The notes beneath the pieces are model-generated. The model did no database searches and was not told the origin of the DNA. It was given only the letters and a program-made list of their open reading frames with translations. From a virus (lineage: Duplodnaviria; Heunggongvirae; Uroviricota; Caudoviricetes): a stretch of 21,516 nucleotides of DNA. Location: positions 1-21,516 of IMG/VR virus record IMGVR_UViG_2718218128_000003, one strand, 5' to 3'. Positions 213 through 19,985 of the stretch are shown one piece after another; the first letter of the stretch is position 1; every line of letters begins with the position of its first letter. The translations under genes were made by a program, and so were the position numbers.

Positions 213-797
213 TTACTCCCTGACAGGGTTCGTAGGCCACTCAATATCAGGTGCAGTTGATGTATCAACACGGTTCAGCAACACCCGATACTTTTTCCAG
301 GCTTCCAGCAATGAGGTTTCTTCCTCCGTTGCAATTTCCAGATCTGCAGCATCCTGAAGCGGCGCAATATGCTCACTGGCTGCCTGCATCAGGCTGTTTT
401 TTGTTTCTTCCGCCTCCCGGATCCGGAACAGTTTTTCTGCTTCCGTATCCTTCACCCAGGCTGTGCCGTTCCACTTCTGAAACTCCCCTTCCGGGGATAA
501 CCAGGTGACATTTTCCGGTAATGAGCCGAGTTCAGAAATAAATAACGCGTCGCCGGAAGCCACGTCATAAACCGTTTTACCCCGATGATCTTCAACGAGA
601 TGCCACGATGCCTCATCACTGTTGAAAACAGCCACGAAGCCAGCCGGAATATCTGGCGGTGCAATATAGGTACTGTTTGCTGGCAGACCTGTATGAGGCG
701 GAATATATGCGTCACCTTCACCAATAAATTCATTAGTTCCGGCCAGCAGATTATAAATTTTTATGGTCCGTGGTTGTTCACTCATTCTGAATGCCAT
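213..797 (-). CDS. tfaR: Tail fibre assembly protein (Tfa chaperone)
   Basis: 194-aa ORF ([24 protein letters not shown]...) matching the Rac/lambdoid Tfa family as recalled. Its ATG overlaps the upstream stop (TAATG). Confidence 0.85.
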
Positions 798-2125
798 TAT
801 GCAAGCCTCACAATATAGTTAAATGCGATGTTTTTGACAGTGTTTTCCGCGTTACCAGCAGCGTTAACGGTGATGGTGTGTCCATGTGAGCCAATCGCAA
901 CAGAGTGCGTATGAGCACCAATACCGACAGTATGTGCGTGAGCACCTGCAGATGCAGCTGTGCCGCTGACACTATGAGTGTGCGCTCCTGCAGCACTTGT
1001 ATTCACACTGGCCGCAGACACTACCTTATGTACTGACCCATTTTGTGACCACTGGCTGACTGCTGATGCGCCTGTGACACTATGAGTATGGTTTCCGGCA
1101 CTTGCGGCTGTACCGCTCACACTGTGCGTATGCGCCCCGGTGTTATTCGTGGATTTAGTGCCGTAATCAAACGACGATGTGGTTTTCGTCCCCAAATCCG
1201 TACTGGATGCGCTGGCGCTGTGGGTGTGCGATTTAATGCCGTCCTGTTCCTGAGACAATACGGCCCGACCACTGGCAGGTTTGCCCTTAATCGTCCAGCC
1301 ACGCATATCAGGGATCACGCCTGACGGATAAGCGGTTGCAAGTTTCGGGTAAGCAGATTTGTCAAAAGTCTGCCCCTGCATCAGGGCATAACCAGACGGA
1401 ACGGTATCTGATGGCCACGGGATTGGTGCGCCAGGCGGATAAAACTGCTCTGATGGCGTATAGAGTGAATAAACTGTACCGTCCGTTAACCCTTCCGGCT
1501 TATTAGCAGAATATGCTGGTGACGTATGAATAGTCACGCTGGCATTACTGGTATAATCCCATTGAATATTTACACCAGTCGCATAATTTCCGATTGCAAC
1601 GTAAATATCGTAAGTATCACCAGATGTATTGACCCAGGCAAAATTTGTAAACCCTGTCGATGTGCGCTGCCATAAAGCACCAGTAATCCCCTTCGGATTA
1701 CCATTACCGGGCAAAACATCCGTCAACAGTTCATCAATTTCTGTCGGGATGAAGCCTGTCAGGGAGACATCAAAATCAGCATTGATTAGGTCCGACAGCT
1801 CCATCCGCAACAGATCTTCATCCCAGCCAGCATTCATCGGCAGGCGATTATCTGCCAGGCGGTACGCCTTTTTCTGCTCATCCGTCAGGCCAGACAGAAC
1901 AATGACCGGAACAGAATCCATTTTGAGCATTTCAGCCGCCATAACACGACCGTGACCCGCAATAATTTCGCCCTTATCGTCAATCAGCACCGGATTAGTC
2001 CAGCCGAATTGCTTAATACTTTCTACCAGTTGTGCCACCTGCTCAGTACTGTGCGTCCTGGCGTTGTGCGCATACGGTGACAATTCTTGTAATGGGCGAT
2101 AGACTATCTTTAATTTCTCGCTCAT
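797..2125 (-). CDS. Chimeric ORF: N-terminal ParB-like nuclease domain (aa ~8-115) fused in frame to a side-tail-fibre C-terminus (tail-collar-like motif and His-x-His repeats)
   Basis: The N-terminus ([18 protein letters not shown]...[21 protein letters not shown]...LADNRL) has ParB/Srx-type motifs. From about aa 140 the sequence is tail-fibre-like ([36 protein letters not shown], then GAHTHSVSG repeats). It is translationally coupled to tfa. Confidence 0.7.
875..1231 (-). repeat. Imperfect in-frame repeats encoding seven His-x-His motifs (SHTHS, AHTHS, NHTHS, AHTHS, AHAHT, AHTHS, SHGHT) in the tail-fibre C-terminus
   Basis: Repeated nucleotide and peptide units ([15 protein letters not shown]) read directly from the translation. 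Confidence 0.7.
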
Positions 2126-5282: not shown

Positions 5283-5678
5283 CTAACCTCGCATGTCAAA
5301 GCCAGATTTCTGAAAATCTCTGTAGACTTCCGGATTGTTGAAGGCCGGAAATTTGGCTTTATGAGCTGCGGACTTTATCGCTTCGCAATAGGCTTTATCA
5401 CCGTTACTGGTAGATATTTTTAACGCCGTGCCATCCTGAGAGAATTCCATATGCAACCTGCATTTTTTCCCTTTCCAGTTATGCGGCTCATCAAGTTTGG
5501 CATTAATTGCAGCTCTGATTCCCCGCGCTTGCGCCCCCCATTCATCCTGATCATCCCAGCGTCCTGAACTGCAACTACCTGTAGCAGTAGTTTTGTGGCA
5601 ATCTGAAGGGTGTAAAGGTGTGCATCCCGCAACAAAACCGACCCAAAAAGTCAACATAACGATTTTCTTTAATCCCAC
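5283..5678 (-). CDS. Lipoprotein with a diverged TolA C-terminal-domain-like region
   Basis: GTG start preceded by GAGGAG; signal peptide with lipobox (MGLKKIVMLTFWVGFVAGC). The C-terminus (GKKCRLHMEFSQDGTALKIS...CEAIKSAAHKAKFPAFNNPEVYRDF) keeps the Cys pair and spacing of TolA domain III. Confidence 0.6.
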   Translation of the reverse strand: MGLKKIVMLTFWVGFVAGCTPLHPSDCHKTTATGSCSSGRWDDQDEWGAQARGIRAAINAKLDEPHNWKGKKCRLHMEFSQDGTALKISTSNGDKAYCEAIKSAAHKAKFPAFNNPEVYRDFQKSGFDMRG

Positions 5679-5828: not shown

Positions 5829-6257
5829 TCAGGGTTTAAAATCCAGCACCCCATTTTGAAATACTTTATATACTTCCGGCGAAGGGGGGGCAGGTATATC
5901 AGCATTCTTTATCGCATTCATCGCTTCACGACATAAATCGAGGTCTCCACTTTCTCTTTTAACCTCCAGTAGAAGGCCATTCGGGGCCATATGCATTCTC
6001 AGTGTACACTCTTTTCCTGAATACTTACTCGCATCCCCGAACTGTTTTTCGATGGCGCTCTTGATTTGATGGGCATACAGACGGATATCCTCACTAACAT
6101 CAGAAGTACGTTCAGATGAACTCACATACTGTGTCTCTATTGCTTTATCGGAGTAATATGATGTACGGTCATGATAATTTGTCGATACAGCATCAGTGCA
6201 CCCGATAATAATCCCACTAATAATCAACGTAAGAATTGATGCGCTACGAAAACCCAT
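5829..6257 (-). CDS. Lipoprotein with a TolA C-terminal-domain (domain III)-like region
   Basis: ATG preceded by GAGGA; lipobox (IISGIIIGC). The C-terminal ~85 aa (YAHQIKSAIEKQFGDASKYSGKECTLRMHMAPNGLLLEVK...PPSPEVYKVFQNGVLDFKP) aligns end to end with the E. coli TolA C-terminus as recalled. Confidence 0.7.
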   Translation of the reverse strand: MGFRSASILTLIISGIIIGCTDAVSTNYHDRTSYYSDKAIETQYVSSSERTSDVSEDIRLYAHQIKSAIEKQFGDASKYSGKECTLRMHMAPNGLLLEVKRESGDLDLCREAMNAIKNADIPAPPSPEVYKVFQNGVLDFKP

Positions 6258-7194
6258 TTTTCCTCACATATGTCATATAGTAAAGGATTATATATACCGT
6301 TGTTTTGGACGCTCAAACAGCGAATCAGATCAAATAAAACGCACATTTGTTAACATTTACACAAAGTCTGCGTGGGATATTCTGAAAGAATATCCATAAT
6401 GTGGAGAGAATCTATTGAAGTGCATGGTGCCGGGTGCCTCCCGGTGAACAAAATGTTCGTGATACCTGTCGGCGACAGAAAAGGTTAATGGTATCACCCC
6501 ACCGCACAGGGGGATTCACCATGCAGGAGTTTTCTTAGCAAACTCACTGCGCGCCCGGCAACTCCCAACCACATAAAATGCGGAGTTTGTGGTATTTATG
6601 CATATAACTCGCAGGAATTATCTTAAAAAACTGATGTCGATCCGGATTAAAAAGAAGCAGGTCATCATCAGATGACTGGAAAAAAGGAAAACAAAAAATA
6701 CTCATCATACAGTTTTGATTGCAGGGATGAGCCTGCTATGCACAATATGCAGAATATAAGCAAGATAAAAATATGCAGGCATATTATTTCGGATTTTGTT
6801 ATTAACACAACCTTTTTAATAATCATTTGGCATACAATAAACCAGCCCAAAAAGAACCGCCTAAACAGGCGGTTGGTCAATACAAAGGATGCTTCGTCTT
6901 TATTATAGTAATCTGAGGCGTCGGGTGTCTTGTATCAGACAACATATTGTCCCGCTAAACAGCGAATTACAAACCACCCTGCAATGATCTCTCATCTCAT
7001 TTTATATGAGTTGACGACATCAGGATAACGCATCATCAGCCCCTGCCAAGAAATATCAAAACTCCCGCCAGCAATGTGTTATCACAATATTGTAAAAAAA
7101 ACACAGCACCGAAACTATAACTGGTCTCTGTTATAATTTGGAGCAGAAAGACCAGTTGCCCAACTAGCAGCATTCTCCCCTGCTTTCCTGACGT

Positions 7195-7301: not shown

Positions 7302-7844
7302 TCAAGCCATTTTCTCAGCAAATGATTCACGCATGGGAATATATAGGGCATACTCAGCAACAGCTAACCAATTAGCAATCCGTTTTTCGCATGTGCTAAA
7401 ACACCACTCTGGGTGTGCATCATTTAGCAATTCAGCCATTTTGCGCTTAGTCATCCCCCGCCCTTCATAGCGTTGCCGGAGAATGCAAATCAATCCTGGA
7501 TGCTCTGCCAGCACCTCACTTATGACTCGATCAATACATAACGCCTCTGCATCAGTACAATGCGCCAGCCAGCTCTTTTGCTTGCCGTTGATCATCTCTC
7601 GCAAAAACGCTTCCAGCTCAGCTTTCTCTATTCCCGCTTTTTTCATTCTGCGCAGGGCTTCATTAATGGCTGTTTTCGTCAGTTTTTTGGATGCCAACAA
7701 CTGATTGAACATATTCCCTGACCTGCCACCGCCAATATACGACCAGCGCCCCCACATACGTAGTTTTCCCTGAATCCAGACACTTTCCAGCGTGGTGAGG
7801 CGAAGGTGTTCTCCGCTTTTTCCTGTATTCGTTGGGTAAATCAT
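7302..7844 (-). CDS. Putative late-gene antiterminator Q-family protein
   Basis: 180-aa ORF immediately upstream of the terminator and lysis cassette, start overlapping the upstream gene (ATGA). Has an RWG-W-like N-terminal motif and C-terminal Cys pairs. Family assignment rests on position and motifs only. Confidence 0.55.
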   Translation of the reverse strand: MIYPTNTGKSGEHLRLTTLESVWIQGKLRMWGRWSYIGGGRSGNMFNQLLASKKLTKTAINEALRRMKKAGIEKAELEAFLREMINGKQKSWLAHCTDAEALCIDRVISEVLAEHPGLICILRQRYEGRGMTKRKMAELLNDAHPEWCFSTCEKRIANWLAVAEYALYIPMRESFAEKMA

Positions 7845-9193: not shown

Positions 9194-9349
9194 TTACTCC
9201 CCAAGTTCGTAAGCTGTGAAGACAGCGACCTCCGTCTGGTCGGTTCGGATTCGTACCTCGCAGAGGTCTTTCCTCGTTACCAGTACCGTCACTATAACGG
9301 TTAAACAGATGACGATCAGGGTGATTAACATCGCCTTTTGCTGCTTCAT
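9194..9349 (-). CDS. hok: Hok/Gef-family type I toxin (HokD/RelF-like)
   Basis: MKQQKAMLITLIVICLTVIVTVLVTRKDLCEVRIRTDQTEVAVFTAYELGE, 51 aa, near-identical to HokD as recalled. An in-frame upstream ATG at 9406 gives the 70-aa track ORF. Confidence 0.8.
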   Translation of the reverse strand: MKQQKAMLITLIVICLTVIVTVLVTRKDLCEVRIRTDQTEVAVFTAYELGE

Positions 9350-9520
9350 AGCCCGCTTCTTCTTGCCTTTCAGCACGTAAGAGACTAACCTACGTTTGTA
9401 AGGCATAGATTGGGCCCCAGATTAATGTTAAGCCTCTTGCCGGATGCGTAATATCAACTGGGACTTTTTCTATCTGCCTTTGGTTTTCATGCCCAAGGCA
9501 GATAGCCTCAAGTCCCCGCA
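9350..9520 (-). promoter_or_regulatory. hok mRNA 5' leader with mok-like upstream start and expected Sok antisense target
   Basis: The leader contains CTTGAGGCTATCTGCC and GGCAAGAAGAAGCGGGCT-ATG, which resemble the R1 hok tac and translation-initiation regions as recalled. The Sok gene itself was not delimited. Confidence 0.4.
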
Positions 9521-9649: not shown

Positions 9650-9923
9650 GATAACCTCCTGTATTGGACGTGCACCTGCCCTGATAAATATGAGGCTGTC
9701 TCGTCAGTGATTCAATACAACTATTGGGTATAGTTTCTGTGATTTTGTTCTGTAGAAATGGAATACAACAACCAGTCACTACCAGCACTTCTTTAAATAC
9801 GCCAAGTCCGACGGAAGCCAACATCTAGTCTGCTTTGAACGAGGAGCTAACTTTGGTGTATATAGAAACATAATCACTACAGGTAGTTCCGAAAAAATTT
9901 CTCTATCGTGATACTTGCTGGTT

Positions 9924-10973
9924 TTATTTTAATCTCTGTAATTTTTTACGCAGAGCATTAACTCGTCTCTGAACCCCTATTTTTGGATTAAAGCTCAAAG
10001 CTTTTTCATAGGCATCAAGAGCATCACTAAAGTTACCAAGTAAATCATTTGCTTCACCTTTGATGCGAAATGCGGCTGCAGCCCAGTCAGTTCGGTCTTT
10101 CGCTCCTTCATTAAGAGCCATTTCAATTGCTTTCAATGCTTTTTGAGCATTCTTCTCACTGGGATGTTCTCTTAAAAGCGCTCTCGCGGCCTCTACTTTA
10201 AGGTTGAAATTTCCTTTATATAGACAAGCATCTTTATACGCTTCCACGTCAATGGGAATACCGATGGCAGTGTATCTGAAGTATCCAATATTTTTGCATT
10301 TCACTTTCAGCGATCTTAGCTCCCCATTTTCATCGAGATCGAAGAAATAACTATCAGCCCATCCATACTCAGGTTTAATGGAAAATATTGTTGTTTTTGA
10401 CCACAGATTTATTACCTCAAGGATATTTCCATCTTTACCGGGCGCTGCGGCTGTCTGAACCGATGCGTATTTACCACAATGAGAAATTCCGATATTATAG
10501 ATATTTGCTTCATAATGACGTCTAAACTTTTCATTTCCTTCAACATCAATAGCAATCAAATCAGCTTGCAGCGCAGAACCAAATCCAGCGTCATGAACAA
10601 TATAATCACCTGTGTCAGCGACAGCAGCATTAAATGGTCGGGCAATAGTTCTGAGCTTATGAAGGATACGAAAAGTTGGTTTATTAACTAAAACAACTGT
10701 TCCAAATCCACTTTCCCGGTGCCCTCCCCTTCCATTGCCATCAAAGTCACTACAGCCTACAACCCAATGTTTGTTTGCAGACAGATACGCCTGTCCAAAA
10801 AAATAAGGAGAATCAATAGTAAGCCAATCGTTTTCGATTGATATATTTCCGTTTTGTTTCTTGAGTTTAGGAGTTATGTTAGCTGTTAACTCATGCAAAC
10901 TTGAAGGCGTCATTGTTTTTGCAGAAGTTATCCTGGAGGTAAGCAAATTGAATAGTTGTGAAATAAATCCCAT
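9924..10973 (-). CDS. Uncharacterised 349-aa protein: unassigned N-terminal domain with a C-terminal TPR-like helical repeat
   Basis: Long ORF with AGGAG upstream and AT-rich codon usage. The C-terminus (AQKALKAIEMALNEGAKDRTDWAAAAFRIKGEANDLLGNFSDALDAYEKALSFNP) is TPR-like. The N-terminus contains GCSDFDGNGRGGH and HDAGFG motifs that I cannot place. Confidence 0.8.
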   Translation of the reverse strand: MGFISQLFNLLTSRITSAKTMTPSSLHELTANITPKLKKQNGNISIENDWLTIDSPYFFGQAYLSANKHWVVGCSDFDGNGRGGHRESGFGTVVLVNKPTFRILHKLRTIARPFNAAVADTGDYIVHDAGFGSALQADLIAIDVEGNEKFRRHYEANIYNIGISHCGKYASVQTAAAPGKDGNILEVINLWSKTTIFSIKPEYGWADSYFFDLDENGELRSLKVKCKNIGYFRYTAIGIPIDVEAYKDACLYKGNFNLKVEAARALLREHPSEKNAQKALKAIEMALNEGAKDRTDWAAAAFRIKGEANDLLGNFSDALDAYEKALSFNPKIGVQRRVNALRKKLQRLK

Positions 10974-11299
10974 TTATAAATACTCCTGAGTAGCTTTTTT
11001 AAAACGTTGGCACTTATATGGCCCTCCGTGGACAAAGTGGATCCAAAAATGTCCATTCTATCTAAGGCCAGACGAACGTTCTGGTTGAAAATCTGAGTAT
11101 CGCTTCGTCGCTAATTCGCCGTTAGACATATTTAACCACTTTTAGCAAAAATATGCACATTTTTCATCCAAGAAAACAAAAAATCGCCATCCGCAACAAT
11201 CTGCTTGTTTTCGTTAAATTTTGACAATCACGCCTTTTTCTTCTCGGCAGAGCTGAAAAATGCTAAAGTCGTATCTGGGTGGATTAATCGTATACATGG

Positions 11300-11376
11300 G
11301 AAAAGTAGATACGGAAGAAAGGGGAAAAGTAAAAGGTAGATGCAAAAGAAAGGTCCGCTTTGAGCGAGGAGCGGAC
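11300..11376 (-). terminator. Possible terminator after the GmrSD-like gene (GTCCGC...GCGGAC hairpin followed by a T-rich tract)
   Basis: Hairpin at 11353-11376 with a long loop, then CTTTCTTTTGCATCTACCTTTTACTTTTCC on the minus strand. Confidence 0.3.
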
Positions 11377-11500
11377 TTGTTAATATCGAGCCTATCTCGT
11401 AATGATATAATTGAAGACATGTTGTAGGCCTAGCAGGATATCCATGACTCATCAAACTGTCAGTAAAACATCCCACTTACGCCTATGTTTTATTGATAGA

Positions 11501-13183
11501 TTAACCAACTTTCCATACATTTACTGCTTGTTCCGACATCCATTTTTGAAAATCATTGACAGCCTCTAAATTCCATTCAGGATACTGTGTAATCTTAGCC
11601 GCTAATTTATACTTTGATTTTCCATATTCATTTTTCTTCACTTCAAATGAAGCTCTTTTTAGATTATCTTTATCCATCAAAACCATATTTCCTAACCTAT
11701 CCTTTACGTCATTAACCCCCTCCCCAAACGAATTGCACCACCCTTTCTCTGGGTTAAATGGACAAATATGTTCGAGTGTAACTTTTTCATGATCGCAATT
11801 ATTACCAAGATATTGTTCAATTTCAGCCAAGAGAAATCTAATTTTTTTGGCTGTTTGTCTACTTGGCATTCGATGAAATTCAAAAGCATTAAAGAACACG
11901 TTATCATCAGGATATAACCTCTTAAACTCCTCCCCATTTTTCACATTGCTAGCTCTCTTGTATTCCTTATTGGAGATCTTAATCGCAATTTGATTATACA
12001 TGCTTTCTTGTTCACTTGGTGATAAATGACAAATAACATTGTATCTAATTGATAAAATATATAAATAACGAGTCAGGCTGACGAACTCATCTGGATTGAA
12101 TTGATTAAAAGCTGATAGCAATACTGTTAATGGCTGTCTAATATTAAAGAGTCTAATGCCGTTCAGATAATGAATGGCCTTCTTGTATTTAGTATCTTGC
12201 TCTGCCCACCATGAATCATTCGGGTTAATCAATGATGCATAAATAGGTGCGGAATTTATCAGTGATCTTAAATAATCGTATGCTTCTTTAGGGGTTGTAA
12301 TTACTTTTCTCATTGAAGTGTATAAATTATTTTTTGTGACCATTTTTCTATGAGAATTATGATGATACCTAATGTAATCAGAAACATTGCTTTCTCCCAA
12401 CTGATCGATAATCTCCGACCATTGCTCATCTAACTCATCTAATTCCTCATCTCCGATTTTCTCATCCTTAGTTACTATCGAAAACAAATAGTTTTTTAAG
12501 AGATCTGGCGTGGATAACTGGACTCCTCTCGCATTTAAAGTTTCAAATACTTTGTATGCATTTAAATCATCTTGAACAACTATTTTTGTAAAAACCATAC
12601 TCGAAGAAAAATCGGCAATAAACTGTGCGATCTCAGCGCCGGTATTACCGAACTCCTTCTTTTGGAAAAAATCAAAGCATTTCTTGAGTAGCTTATTTGT
12701 AGATGTAGTTCCACGAGTATTAGGAGCTTCTAAGTTTGAACAGATGCTTTGAAAATATCTTTTATTATTTCTATTTAAATCTAGCTTGCTAACCACCTTT
12801 AATGAAACGAAGTTTTTGTTACCCACAAATGTCTTTGTTATTGCATCAAGTCGCTCTGTGTTTTGTTCAACCTCCTCTCCTTTATCTATCAAGTTTTTAA
12901 TGGCTTTCATGGCTGCTAGAACTATAATCGACAAGGTTACTAATCGTTGTTGACCATCAATGACCTCATGTTGATACTGTTCTTTTTGTTGAAGAACTAT
13001 ATATCCCATATAATGAAAACCTTCATCATCAAGTGCTGTAACATCACTCCAAAGGTCCTCCCATTGTTCTACATCCCAAGCATAGTCTCGCTGGAATCTA
13101 GGAACAATGTACTTATTTGACCCTCCAATTAATTCATTGAAGTTCTCATTTTTTGGTTCCATTAACATAAACTGTTTGGCCAT
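11501..13183 (-). CDS. GmrSD-family DUF262-DUF1524 fusion protein (candidate type IV modification-dependent restriction nuclease)
   Basis: 560 aa. N-terminal DUF262/ParB-like motifs (IVPRFQRDYAWD, IDGQQRLVTL) and a C-terminal His-Me-finger-like DUF1524 motif (TLEHICPFNPE...LGNMVLMDKDNL). AT-rich. Confidence 0.8.
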   Translation of the reverse strand: MAKQFMLMEPKNENFNELIGGSNKYIVPRFQRDYAWDVEQWEDLWSDVTALDDEGFHYMGYIVLQQKEQYQHEVIDGQQRLVTLSIIVLAAMKAIKNLIDKGEEVEQNTERLDAITKTFVGNKNFVSLKVVSKLDLNRNNKRYFQSICSNLEAPNTRGTTSTNKLLKKCFDFFQKKEFGNTGAEIAQFIADFSSSMVFTKIVVQDDLNAYKVFETLNARGVQLSTPDLLKNYLFSIVTKDEKIGDEELDELDEQWSEIIDQLGESNVSDYIRYHHNSHRKMVTKNNLYTSMRKVITTPKEAYDYLRSLINSAPIYASLINPNDSWWAEQDTKYKKAIHYLNGIRLFNIRQPLTVLLSAFNQFNPDEFVSLTRYLYILSIRYNVICHLSPSEQESMYNQIAIKISNKEYKRASNVKNGEEFKRLYPDDNVFFNAFEFHRMPSRQTAKKIRFLLAEIEQYLGNNCDHEKVTLEHICPFNPEKGWCNSFGEGVNDVKDRLGNMVLMDKDNLKRASFEVKKNEYGKSKYKLAAKITQYPEWNLEAVNDFQKWMSEQAVNVWKVG

Positions 13184-13473
13184 ATAATTGGAATCCTCTA
13201 CTTTTTTAAAATTAATTTCATGCCTAAATTAAATGGGTTCTTGCATGATATATACTGCTAATAATTATCTTGACACTTCAGGGCCACTCTTTACCACCTT
13301 TACCGATAAAATAATACAGCATTTGTTTAAGTAATGTCCGCAGCTGGCACAAAGCAGGCAACCACACTAGTTCTACCCTGTACCATAAAAATGTCAATTT
13401 ACATATGAACCAATGCTATTTAAACTAAAAATACCTATAAATGCAGCATGATTCACTGATAAAATGCCAATAT

Positions 13474-13851
13474 TCACTGCATAACTTCACTCTTCAGGCA
13501 CTCGCGACAGATTATGTTCAGACGCCTGTCGTAACGGCGTATTTCTCCGTCTGGTAATGACCAGATAAGGTCAGGATCAACCACAACCGGTTTCTTCACC
13601 TTTGTCCTTGATAGTTTTTTGCGGGCGTTTTGCCAGTCTTTACGCGCCTGCTCAGACGGGAATAATCCGTAGCCTGAATTGTAAACATCACCACTGGCGA
13701 CTAGTTCTCTGGCGAGAGTGCTTATGTAATACCTTGATGCACCGGTTTTAGCCTCCAGAGCCCGTAACGTCTCGCGACCGCTCAGAGGTACAAGTTCAAC
13801 AACCTGTCCTTTAATTTTTTCTCGCTCTTCTGGTGTAAATACTTTTGCCAT
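13474..13851 (-). CDS. Hypothetical 125-aa protein with a helix-turn-helix-like segment
   Basis: ATG preceded by GGAGG (the track ORF starts 5 codons earlier at TTG). Contains SGRETLRALEAKTGASRYYISTLAREL. Family not recognised. Confidence 0.6.
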   Translation of the reverse strand: MAKVFTPEEREKIKGQVVELVPLSGRETLRALEAKTGASRYYISTLARELVASGDVYNSGYGLFPSEQARKDWQNARKKLSRTKVKKPVVVDPDLIWSLPDGEIRRYDRRLNIICRECLKSEVMQ

Positions 13852-14059
13852 AGGTGCCTCCGGCAATCACTTTTCCGATGCAACATGGCGGGAAGAATCA
13901 GTAATCTGTCGTACAATATCCCTGTGCTTGTTCAACTCACGCAGCGCGGCGCAGACACGCTCCCACTTCTGGACATGATTTTTCGCCCGACGCAGTTCGC
14001 GGTTTGCCATATGCAGTGATGGTAAAACCAGGTCACCCGGCGTTAAGGGGAGAGATAAG

Positions 14060-19588: not shown

Positions 19589-19783
19589 ATGAGATATGAC
19601 AATGTTAAACCATGTCCATTTTGTGGTTGTCCATCAGTAACGGTGAAAGCCATTTCAGGATATTACCGAGCGAAGTGTAACGGATGCGAATCCCGAACCG
19701 GTTATGGTGGAAGTGAAAAAGAAGCACTCGAAAGATGGAATAAACGAACCACTGGAAATAATAATGGAGGTATTCATGTATAA
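19589..19783 (+). CDS. ralR: Restriction alleviation protein Lar/RalR
   Basis: 64 aa, MRYDNVKPCPFCGCPSVTVKAISGYYRAKCNGCESRTGYGG... Confidence 0.85.
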   Translation: MRYDNVKPCPFCGCPSVTVKAISGYYRAKCNGCESRTGYGGSEKEALERWNKRTTGNNNGGIHV

Positions 19784-19985
19784 AATTACCGCCACTATTG
19801 AAAAGGAAGGTGGCACTCCTACTAACTGGACAAGATATTCAAAATCTAAACTAACGAAATCAGAATGCGAAAAAATGCTCTCAGGTAAAAAAGAAGCAGG
19901 CGTTTCCAGAGAGCAGAAAGTAAAACTGATAAATTTTAATTGCGAGAAACTTCAGTCCTCGAGAATTGCATTGTATTCAAATTAA
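19776..19985 (+). CDS. ydaC: YdaC (DUF1187) small protein
   Basis: 69 aa, MYKITATIEKEGGTPTNWTRYSK..., with GGAGG upstream; overlaps the ralR end by 8 nt. Confidence 0.8.
   Translation: MYKITATIEKEGGTPTNWTRYSKSKLTKSECEKMLSGKKEAGVSREQKVKLINFNCEKLQSSRIALYSN

Follow-up and report, generated by a model that had tools for sequence, protein, structure and literature searches.

HEC-06, a stand-alone GmrSD-like defence gene, carried as cargo by a decayed Rac-type prophage

Introduction

DNA modification is what all characterised stand-alone enzymes with a DUF262 and a DUF1524 domain recognise. Among the described systems, the closest to the gene considered here is HEC-06, one of nine 'Hma-embedded candidates' studied by Payne, Hughes, Fineran and Jackson (bioRxiv 10.1101/2024.01.29.577857). 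We have analysed a stretch of 21,516 nucleotides, positions 1 to 21,516 of the IMG/VR virus record IMGVR_UViG_2718218128_000003 (hereafter the window), and in particular a gene at positions 11501-13183. An earlier note, made from the sequence alone, had read this gene as a prophage-borne nuclease of the GmrSD family and a candidate for modification-dependent restriction. We report that the gene has already been described and validated under the name HEC-06, and that ours is a rediscovery rather than a new gene.

The published experiments establish HEC-06 as a defence gene. The tested copy, a 1683-nucleotide gene from E. coli MOD1-EC1687 encoding WP_096851903.1 (Table S2 of the preprint), was cloned into MG1655 deltaRM together with roughly 150 bp of its own upstream DNA, as the putative native promoter, and a promoter inducible by isopropyl β-D-thiogalactopyranoside (IPTG). 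A broad panel of BASEL phages was screened. The single gene sufficed to protect MG1655 deltaRM from several phages, and plaquing of at least two of them was cut by orders of magnitude. Defence was lost with the substitutions Q79A, R80A, E471A and H472A, and S46A had no effect. Toxicity upon IPTG addition is reported for HEC-03 and HEC-04 alone (all from bioRxiv 10.1101/2024.01.29.577857). A second preprint states, at second hand, that HEC-06 blocks T4, and describes a Bacteroides homologue of 22% identity that restricts T-even phages and never T4-GT7, which has unmodified cytosine (10.1101/2025.02.28.640651).

Identification of the gene

The gene is a minus-strand open reading frame (ORF) of 1683 nucleotides with an ATG start and 560 codons for amino acids, at precisely the place and of the length given in the earlier note. 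The top match of the protein in PADLOC is the HEC-06 hidden Markov model (HMM; PDLC04154), with an E-value of 4.3e-221 over residues 1-559 of 560. The runner-up, at 4e-175, is a model called 'Orf5'; 17 'Orf5' HMMs (PDLC02686-PDLC02702) match the protein, and the name may stand for DUF262-DUF1524 genes that accompany DNA-modification systems. Far lower scores were obtained with the PADLOC models for SspE and type IV systems.

The accessible text of Payne et al. allowed the first 399 nucleotides and the first 399 residues of the tested HEC-06 to be compared with the window gene. All 399 nucleotides and all 399 amino acids are identical, with zero mismatches, and the numbering of S46, Q79, R80, E471 and H472 as well as the EHICP motif is common to the two proteins. 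The window protein is identical to WP_001118594.1 of strain SE11. In its 90% cluster, seven other full-length members were compared, each of which is one substitution away from the window protein (N555K and D426E, for example). Judged by these comparisons, the window gene is the HEC-06 already described, to within about one residue.

The assignment to the GmrSD family in the earlier note is therefore supported both by the domains described below and by identity over 399 residues to a protein that, in the accessible text, is proven to act as a stand-alone defence needing DGQQR and EH. The note was right to suspect a defence gene, but did not identify it as HEC-06, which had been named and tested before. 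The RefSeq label of the protein is only 'DUF262 domain-containing protein'; the correct label is validated HEC-06 defence gene. In the study of Silas et al. (PMC12373910), WP_001118594 belongs to the GmrSD cluster CLS_039, which has five members and lies outside the 20 commonest clusters, those that supplied the systems synthesised and tested. Some sources call the orthologues 'RloF', the restriction-linked ORF of type I restriction-modification (RM) loci.

Domain architecture and conservation

The protein carries both GmrSD domains on a single polypeptide, with a helical linker between them (Table 1). GmrSD_N/DUF262 (PF03235) matches residues 16-234 with an E-value of 1.7e-37 and 129.9 bits (cut-off 33.2), and GmrSD_C/DUF1524 (PF07510) matches residues 424-551 with 1.9e-17 and 63.8 bits (cut-off 23). 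Both scores exceed the curated Pfam cut-offs and are far beyond chance, which bears out the domain composition that the earlier note had read from short motifs. A scan of the protein against NCBIfam gave no family over its cut-off. By script search, the DGQQR motif lies at residues 76-80 (nucleotides 12944-12958), EHICP at residues 471-475 (nucleotides 11759-11773) and GNMVL at residues 498-502; L470 precedes EHICP, so that the LEHICP of the note (470-475) is also found as described. The N-terminal domain has the further motifs QR (31-32), I75 immediately before DGQQR, and FxxxN (F213 to N217).

The AlphaFold2 model of the protein has a mean pLDDT score (predicted local distance difference test) of 76, which is high in the linker and the nuclease domain and lower in the N-terminal domain. 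Its N-terminal domain is of mixed alpha/beta structure and its long middle part is helical; these are followed by a nuclease region of the beta-beta-alpha type, in which residues 469-472 and 500-503 form beta strands and residues 513-522 a helix.

We aligned 42 orthologous sequences of 63-86% identity, nearly all of exactly 560 amino acids. The invariant residues include Q31, R32, D76-R80, F213 and N217 in the N-terminal domain, and E471, H472, C474, P475, N491 and G498 in the nuclease domain, where N499 is also conserved. The position of S46, in contrast, is occupied by Ser, Ala, Gly or Asn. This pattern, with Q79, R80, E471 and H472 fixed and S46 variable, agrees with the published mutant phenotypes.

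Proposed mechanism and alternatives

We think it probable that HEC-06 is a stand-alone GmrSD-like anti-phage nuclease that is licensed by the hypermodified bases of phage DNA and is carried here as prophage cargo. The DUF262 domain, through its nucleotide-hydrolysis motif DGQQR, would be a sensor and switch driven by nucleoside triphosphates (NTPs). It would license the nuclease on incoming DNA with hypermodified bases, such as the glucosyl-hydroxymethylcytosine of T-even phages, and damage to that DNA would be done by the DUF1524 His-Me nuclease, for which E471 and H472 are required. Ordinary Dam/Dcm-methylated DNA of the host and the prophage would be spared. In that sense HEC-06 would be a type IV, modification-dependent restriction enzyme, and the host cell and the resident element would both benefit from the exclusion of virulent T-even-type phages.

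The proposed selectivity for the hypermodified DNA of T-even phages is inferred from the T4 report, from the contrast between T4 and T4-GT7 seen with the Bacteroides homologue, and from the behaviour of the characterised stand-alone members of the family. The exact window protein is found on 795 contigs and the gene in 30 of 5,426 complete E. coli genomes, which indicates that natural Dam+/Dcm+ hosts tolerate it. According to the ORFs of the window and the SE11 annotation, there is no methyltransferase gene adjacent to HEC-06. The sufficiency of the single gene is consistent with the finding that orthologues on other elements share only the ORF, without a conserved neighbour (see below).

Several points weigh against this proposal. 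The defence profile of HEC-06 differs from that of BrxU (Payne et al., bioRxiv 10.1101/2024.01.29.577857), and in the accessible texts there is neither a challenge of HEC-06 with T4 forms whose cytosine is hydroxymethylated or plain nor a cleavage assay in vitro. The nearest solved relatives sense phosphorothioation of host DNA, not base modification of phage DNA, and the modification-dependent homologue is only 22% identical to HEC-06. The accessions of the tested and the window protein (WP_096851903.1 and WP_001118594.1) differ, so that at least one substitution must lie within residues 400-560. Finally, activity of the native promoter in the lysogen is presumed.

The alternative that survives best, which we nevertheless consider unlikely, is a nuclease defence triggered by a phage protein, by a replication or recombination intermediate or by DNA entry, with either direct restriction or abortive infection as the outcome. 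A ParB-like NTPase could serve as a general switch of this kind, and the defence profile unlike that of the modification-dependent BrxU and the broad phage panel screened speak for it; the HEC-06 family is also very distant from BrxU. Such a trigger does not readily account for the specific citation of HEC-06 as blocking T4, for the contrast between T4 and T4-GT7 shown by a member of the HMM family, or for the recognition of DNA modification by every characterised stand-alone enzyme of this architecture. We keep this alternative at some weight because the accessible text of Payne et al. does not report the decisive phage panel for HEC-06 in words.

A mode of action like that of DndI or SspE, in which HEC-06 would read a mark on host DNA (phosphorothioate or similar), spare self DNA or become active through the mark, and nick unmarked DNA as the restriction half of a modification-based system, was raised by the ranking of structural relatives and is set aside as highly improbable, given that HEC-06 alone defends MG1655 deltaRM, a host without dnd or ssp genes, that it is not among the constructs named as IPTG-toxic in the accessible text, whereas in the absence of phosphorothioation DndI becomes toxic and SspE lacks activity, and that neither dndBCDE, sspABCD nor a methylase gene accompanies it in the Rac prophage (the 21.5-kb window and, for the dnd and ssp genes, the SE11 flanks), the Klebsiella element or the Salmonella plasmid. 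The residue at its sensor position, Phe instead of Tyr but likewise aromatic, may point the same way.

The roughly 0.5% of E. coli that carry HEC-06 may resist T-even-type phages, which matters for phage therapy and for the prediction of host range. Because DndI and SspE, rather than BrxU, stand closest to HEC-06 in structure, what it recognises should be tested directly and not taken for granted.

Distribution and mobility

In the 30 E. coli genomes mentioned above, HEC-06 is present at 99% identity or more and always on the chromosome. The block DUF1367-TPR-HEC-06-DUF977 is whole in 29 of these 30 carriers. In one carrier, E. coli W409 (NZ_CP122499.1, 2559939-2562398), the gene is split by IS1 and annotated as separate DUF262 and HNH proteins. 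The Rac prophage of K-12 passes from ydaW straight to rzpR and trkG, and so is without the entire segment, including the slot in which HEC-06 lies.

Orthologues occur on quite different elements. In Klebsiella pneumoniae, 80%-identical orthologues (L006-L009, 8001-9683) are the last gene of an element with an integrase, AlpA and a D5 primase, which resembles a P4-type satellite. One of these loci (L009) has a second gene, encoding a protein of 519 amino acids with GmrSD_N only, about 3.7 kb downstream of the orthologue. In Salmonella, an 86%-identical orthologue (L010, 8001-9683) lies between the nikB relaxase gene and the trb/DotM transfer genes of a conjugative plasmid, and an 80% copy is present on three plasmids. 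Nucleotide similarity between the window and the Klebsiella and Salmonella copies is limited to the ORF (window 11485-13197). By these comparisons HEC-06 moves as a bare ORF among prophages, satellite-like integrative elements and conjugative plasmids. Deposited phage genomes contain no close homologue, the best match being a protein of 29% identity in a Listeria phage, and we know of no sequenced free coliphage that carries HEC-06.

What the present analysis adds to the published description is modest, namely the position of HEC-06 as cargo of a Rac-type prophage in a variable slot, its mobility as a bare ORF and its kinship with DndI and SspE.

The prophage and its cargo slot

The earlier description of the gene as prophage-borne is confirmed. 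The window is a Rac-type lambdoid prophage, and in SE11 the host gene ttcA adjoins its intR. The gene order is intR, xisR, rcbA, ralR/RalA, recT, recE, racC, kilR, sieB, DUF977, HEC-06, TPR, hokD/sok, DUF1367, a Q-like antiterminator, lysis genes and trkG. The positions of the features discussed in this paper are collected in Table 1.

Table 1. Positions of features in the window, with the evidence for each
Feature	Position	Strand	Evidence
HEC-06 gene, 560-aa GmrSD-like nuclease	11501..13183	-	ORF, Pfam, PADLOC, identity to tested HEC-06 and to SE11 WP_001118594.1
DUF262/GmrSD_N ParB-like NTPase domain	12482..13138	-	Residues 16-234, Pfam 1.7e-37
Alpha-helical linker/middle domain	11915..12481	-	Residues about 235-423; AlphaFold2 all-helical, pLDDT mostly 75-96
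DUF1524/GmrSD_C His-Me finger nuclease domain	11531..11914	-	Residues 424-551; E471-H472 (nt 11768-11773), G498-N499
Cargo-specific upstream region, presumed native promoter region	13184..13329	-	Homology boundary; about 150 bp cloned by Payne et al.
Cargo cassette (TPR gene and HEC-06), about 3.5 kb, low GC, in DUF977-hokD slot	9791..13329		blastn against other-cargo prophages; GC
349-aa TPR protein, co-inherited independent cargo gene	9924..10973	-	Weak TPR matches
DUF977 gene, right-hand backbone flank	13474..13866	-	Pfam DUF977 1e-21; SE11 annotation
hokD toxin ORF, left-hand backbone flank	about 9194-9349	-	HokD-like peptide in intact ORF; hokD annotation at the corresponding position of L002 and L003
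sok antitoxin RNA	9344-9517	-	Rfam, 93 bits
Deletion joint, 3.7 kb of SE11 gone	14034..14039		blastn against SE11 (L001): window 14039 = L001 15539, window 14034 = L001 19208; 6 bp shared by the two alignments
ralR toxin gene	about 19590-19783	+	ORF; SE11 and K-12 annotation
RalA antitoxin small RNA	19782-19960	-	Rfam, 225 bits

The gene lies in a cassette of low guanine-plus-cytosine (GC) content, the HEC-06 gene itself having a fraction of 0.33-0.35 against mostly 0.40-0.50 in the flanks. In blastn comparisons with prophages that carry other cargo, homology of the backbone ends near position 9790 towards hokD and near position 13330 towards DUF977. These boundaries define a cassette of about 3.5 kb and assign the 146 bp upstream of HEC-06 to the cargo. 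A search for repeats flanking the cassette found only short two-copy matches, none of them meaningful. The same slot is occupied by an annotated anti-phage dCTP deaminase gene, in the same orientation, in E. coli SJC33 (L002, 3465-5102) and by an alpha/beta hydrolase gene in FORC_044 (L003, 3348-4121); other genomes have KilA-N, ORF6N, DUF1971, DUF551 and DUF7167 genes there, among others. The DUF977-hokD slot of lambdoid prophages looks like a hotspot for cargo.

The other gene of the cassette encodes a protein with one or two weak TPR repeats at its C-terminus, preceded by an N-terminal region of about 270 residues without a characterised family. In 29 E. coli genomes this gene and HEC-06 are inherited together. 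We considered it as a partner of HEC-06 and rejected this idea: a PADLOC scan of the protein gave no match, the gene is absent beside the Klebsiella and Salmonella orthologues, and its homologues occur alone. Homologues without a GmrSD gene are found in a Morganella lambdoid prophage, at the equivalent slot, in a Pectobacterium island and in Pandoraea. The family is small (44 clusters). Its members sit where prophages and islands of Enterobacterales and Burkholderiales carry cargo, in one case next to a SocA_Panacea gene. The TPR gene is possibly another defence or exclusion gene.

Relative to SE11 the prophage has lost 3.7 kb at the joint given in Table 1, comprising part of the DUF1627 gene, ydaV, ydaU, ydaT and the cro-like and racR-like genes. 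An ORF of 442 amino acids at 797-2125 (minus strand) fuses ParB_N (residues 23-90) to the Collar and Phage_fiber repeats of a tail fibre. As the ParB/Srx gene of SE11 is followed by terminase genes, this ORF looks like the joint of a second deletion, from terminase to tail, in which the genes for head and tail were lost. What is left of the prophage is a grounded remnant, deprived of its repressor, replication and structural genes but still with its cargo.

In a prophage without these genes, we infer that HEC-06 would be expressed from its own upstream region or by read-through. A scan for consensus promoters found 16 sites against 14.0 expected from a shuffled background, and the sole promoter-like site upstream of HEC-06 is CGGACA-18-TATTAT at 13340..13311; with the scan at background level, no native promoter can be claimed. 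One might therefore regard the window gene as a silent passenger, intact and unexpressed since its early promoters and regulators were deleted, and without a phenotype in this strain. The region of immunity and early-right control, which lies upstream of HEC-06, did go with the 3.7-kb deletion, the promoter scan fits, and the IS1 insertion in W409 indicates that loss of the gene is tolerated. We give this explanation very little credence, however, as the ORF is uninterrupted and matches exactly the allele found most often, that of the 795 contigs, and is accompanied by about 146 bp of upstream DNA specific to the cargo. Promoters of their own are typical of morons.

The earlier note had also pointed to ralR as a restriction-alleviation gene of the same prophage. 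The gene is present, but its bearing on HEC-06 is not apparent. Restriction alleviation by RalR concerns the type I enzyme EcoKI, and in the SE11 and K-12 records RalR is annotated as an endodeoxyribonuclease toxin of a type I toxin-antitoxin pair. There is thus no evident functional link between ralR and the type IV-like HEC-06.

Some other features of the window are recorded here in their own right. Two tandem ORFs on the minus strand, 5283-5678 (131 amino acids) and 5829-6257 (142 amino acids), encode TolA C-terminal domains (Pfam TolA, 1.3e-14 and 2.4e-23). Their place, with the gene for the Q-like antiterminator (7302-7844) on one side and the lysis genes on the other, is where Stx phages have the Stx genes as cargo. 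The encoded proteins could be decoys against TolA-dependent filamentous phages or colicins. At the Rfam gathering threshold there are, besides sok, matches to the small RNA STnc100 (6368-6554, minus strand), in the interval that separates the TolA-like genes from the Q-like gene, and to IS009 (256-454, minus strand), within the tail-fibre-assembly gene.

Comparison with known systems

The sole match in the PDB by sequence is DndI of Salmonella enterica Cerro 87 (9JFL), with an E-value of 1.2e-17 for the single sequence and of 5.8e-26, over the full length, with a profile. DndI is the closest solved relative by both sequence and fold, and the structural match to it also spans the full length. 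The two proteins share the DUF262-linker-DUF1524 layout and DGQQR at about 20% identity. They differ in that DndI is encoded with dndBCDE/dndFGH, senses phosphorothioate via Y25 and is toxic without it, whereas HEC-06 is solitary, has F30 instead, acts alone in a dnd-free host and has no toxicity reported in the accessible text. F30, which aligns with Y25 of DndI and Y30 of SspE, is invariant in the 42 orthologues; P-x-(Y/F)-QR may be a general motif of DUF262 domains. SspE (PDB 6JIV, 7DRS and 7DRI) has 10-16% identity to HEC-06. It is larger (about 770 amino acids in 7DRS), is a nickase and is active only with phosphorothioation by SspABCD.

Both BrxU (HEC-05; PDB 7P9K) and the GmrSD prototypes (CT596, Eco94GmrSD) resemble HEC-06 in being stand-alone proteins with DUF262 and DUF1524, DGQQR and (D/E)H, and they are active against T-even phages. 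The CT596 gene, flanked by tail-fibre-assembly and invertase genes, probably lies in a cryptic prophage and is a precedent for the location described here. The relationship to BrxU is nonetheless distant: the profiles of HEC-06 and of the BrxU-type HEC-05 align over only 68 columns, around QR and DGQQR, with a probability of 84%, and the window protein has neither the RLFDS nucleotide-binding motif, nor an embedding in BREX, nor close similarity to 7P9K. Of the two relatives proposed in the earlier note, SspE does stand among the closest solved structures, together with DndI, while BrxU is remote. The two-gene systems TgvAB and GmrS1-GmrSD2 are built from the same domain families, are also embedded or cargo genes and act against Tevenvirinae. 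They require a second, DUF262-only protein, whereas HEC-06 acts alone and has no second DUF262 gene adjacent to it in the window.

It is conceivable, if quite doubtful, that HEC-06 and its orthologues of 560 amino acids form a separate branch of the superfamily that descends with the DndI/SspE lineage and yet is independent of host modification, with a rule for distinguishing self from non-self that may not have been described, and that single-gene defences are exchanged generally at the DUF977-hokD slot of lambdoid prophages. Were this true, the rule might correspond neither to the 'hypermodified cytosine' of BrxU and GmrSD nor to the 'absence of host phosphorothioate' of DndI.

The HEC-06 family owes its name to embedding in Hma loci. 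Such embedding is how the family was found, and is not a requirement of the PADLOC model. The window copy lies between the DUF977 and TPR genes as prophage cargo, and is not embedded in a multi-gene defence operon, be it Hma, type I RM or another. Irrespective of its setting, the protein is a bona fide member of the DUF262-DUF1524 superfamily, nearer to the phosphorothioate-sensing branch than to BrxU.

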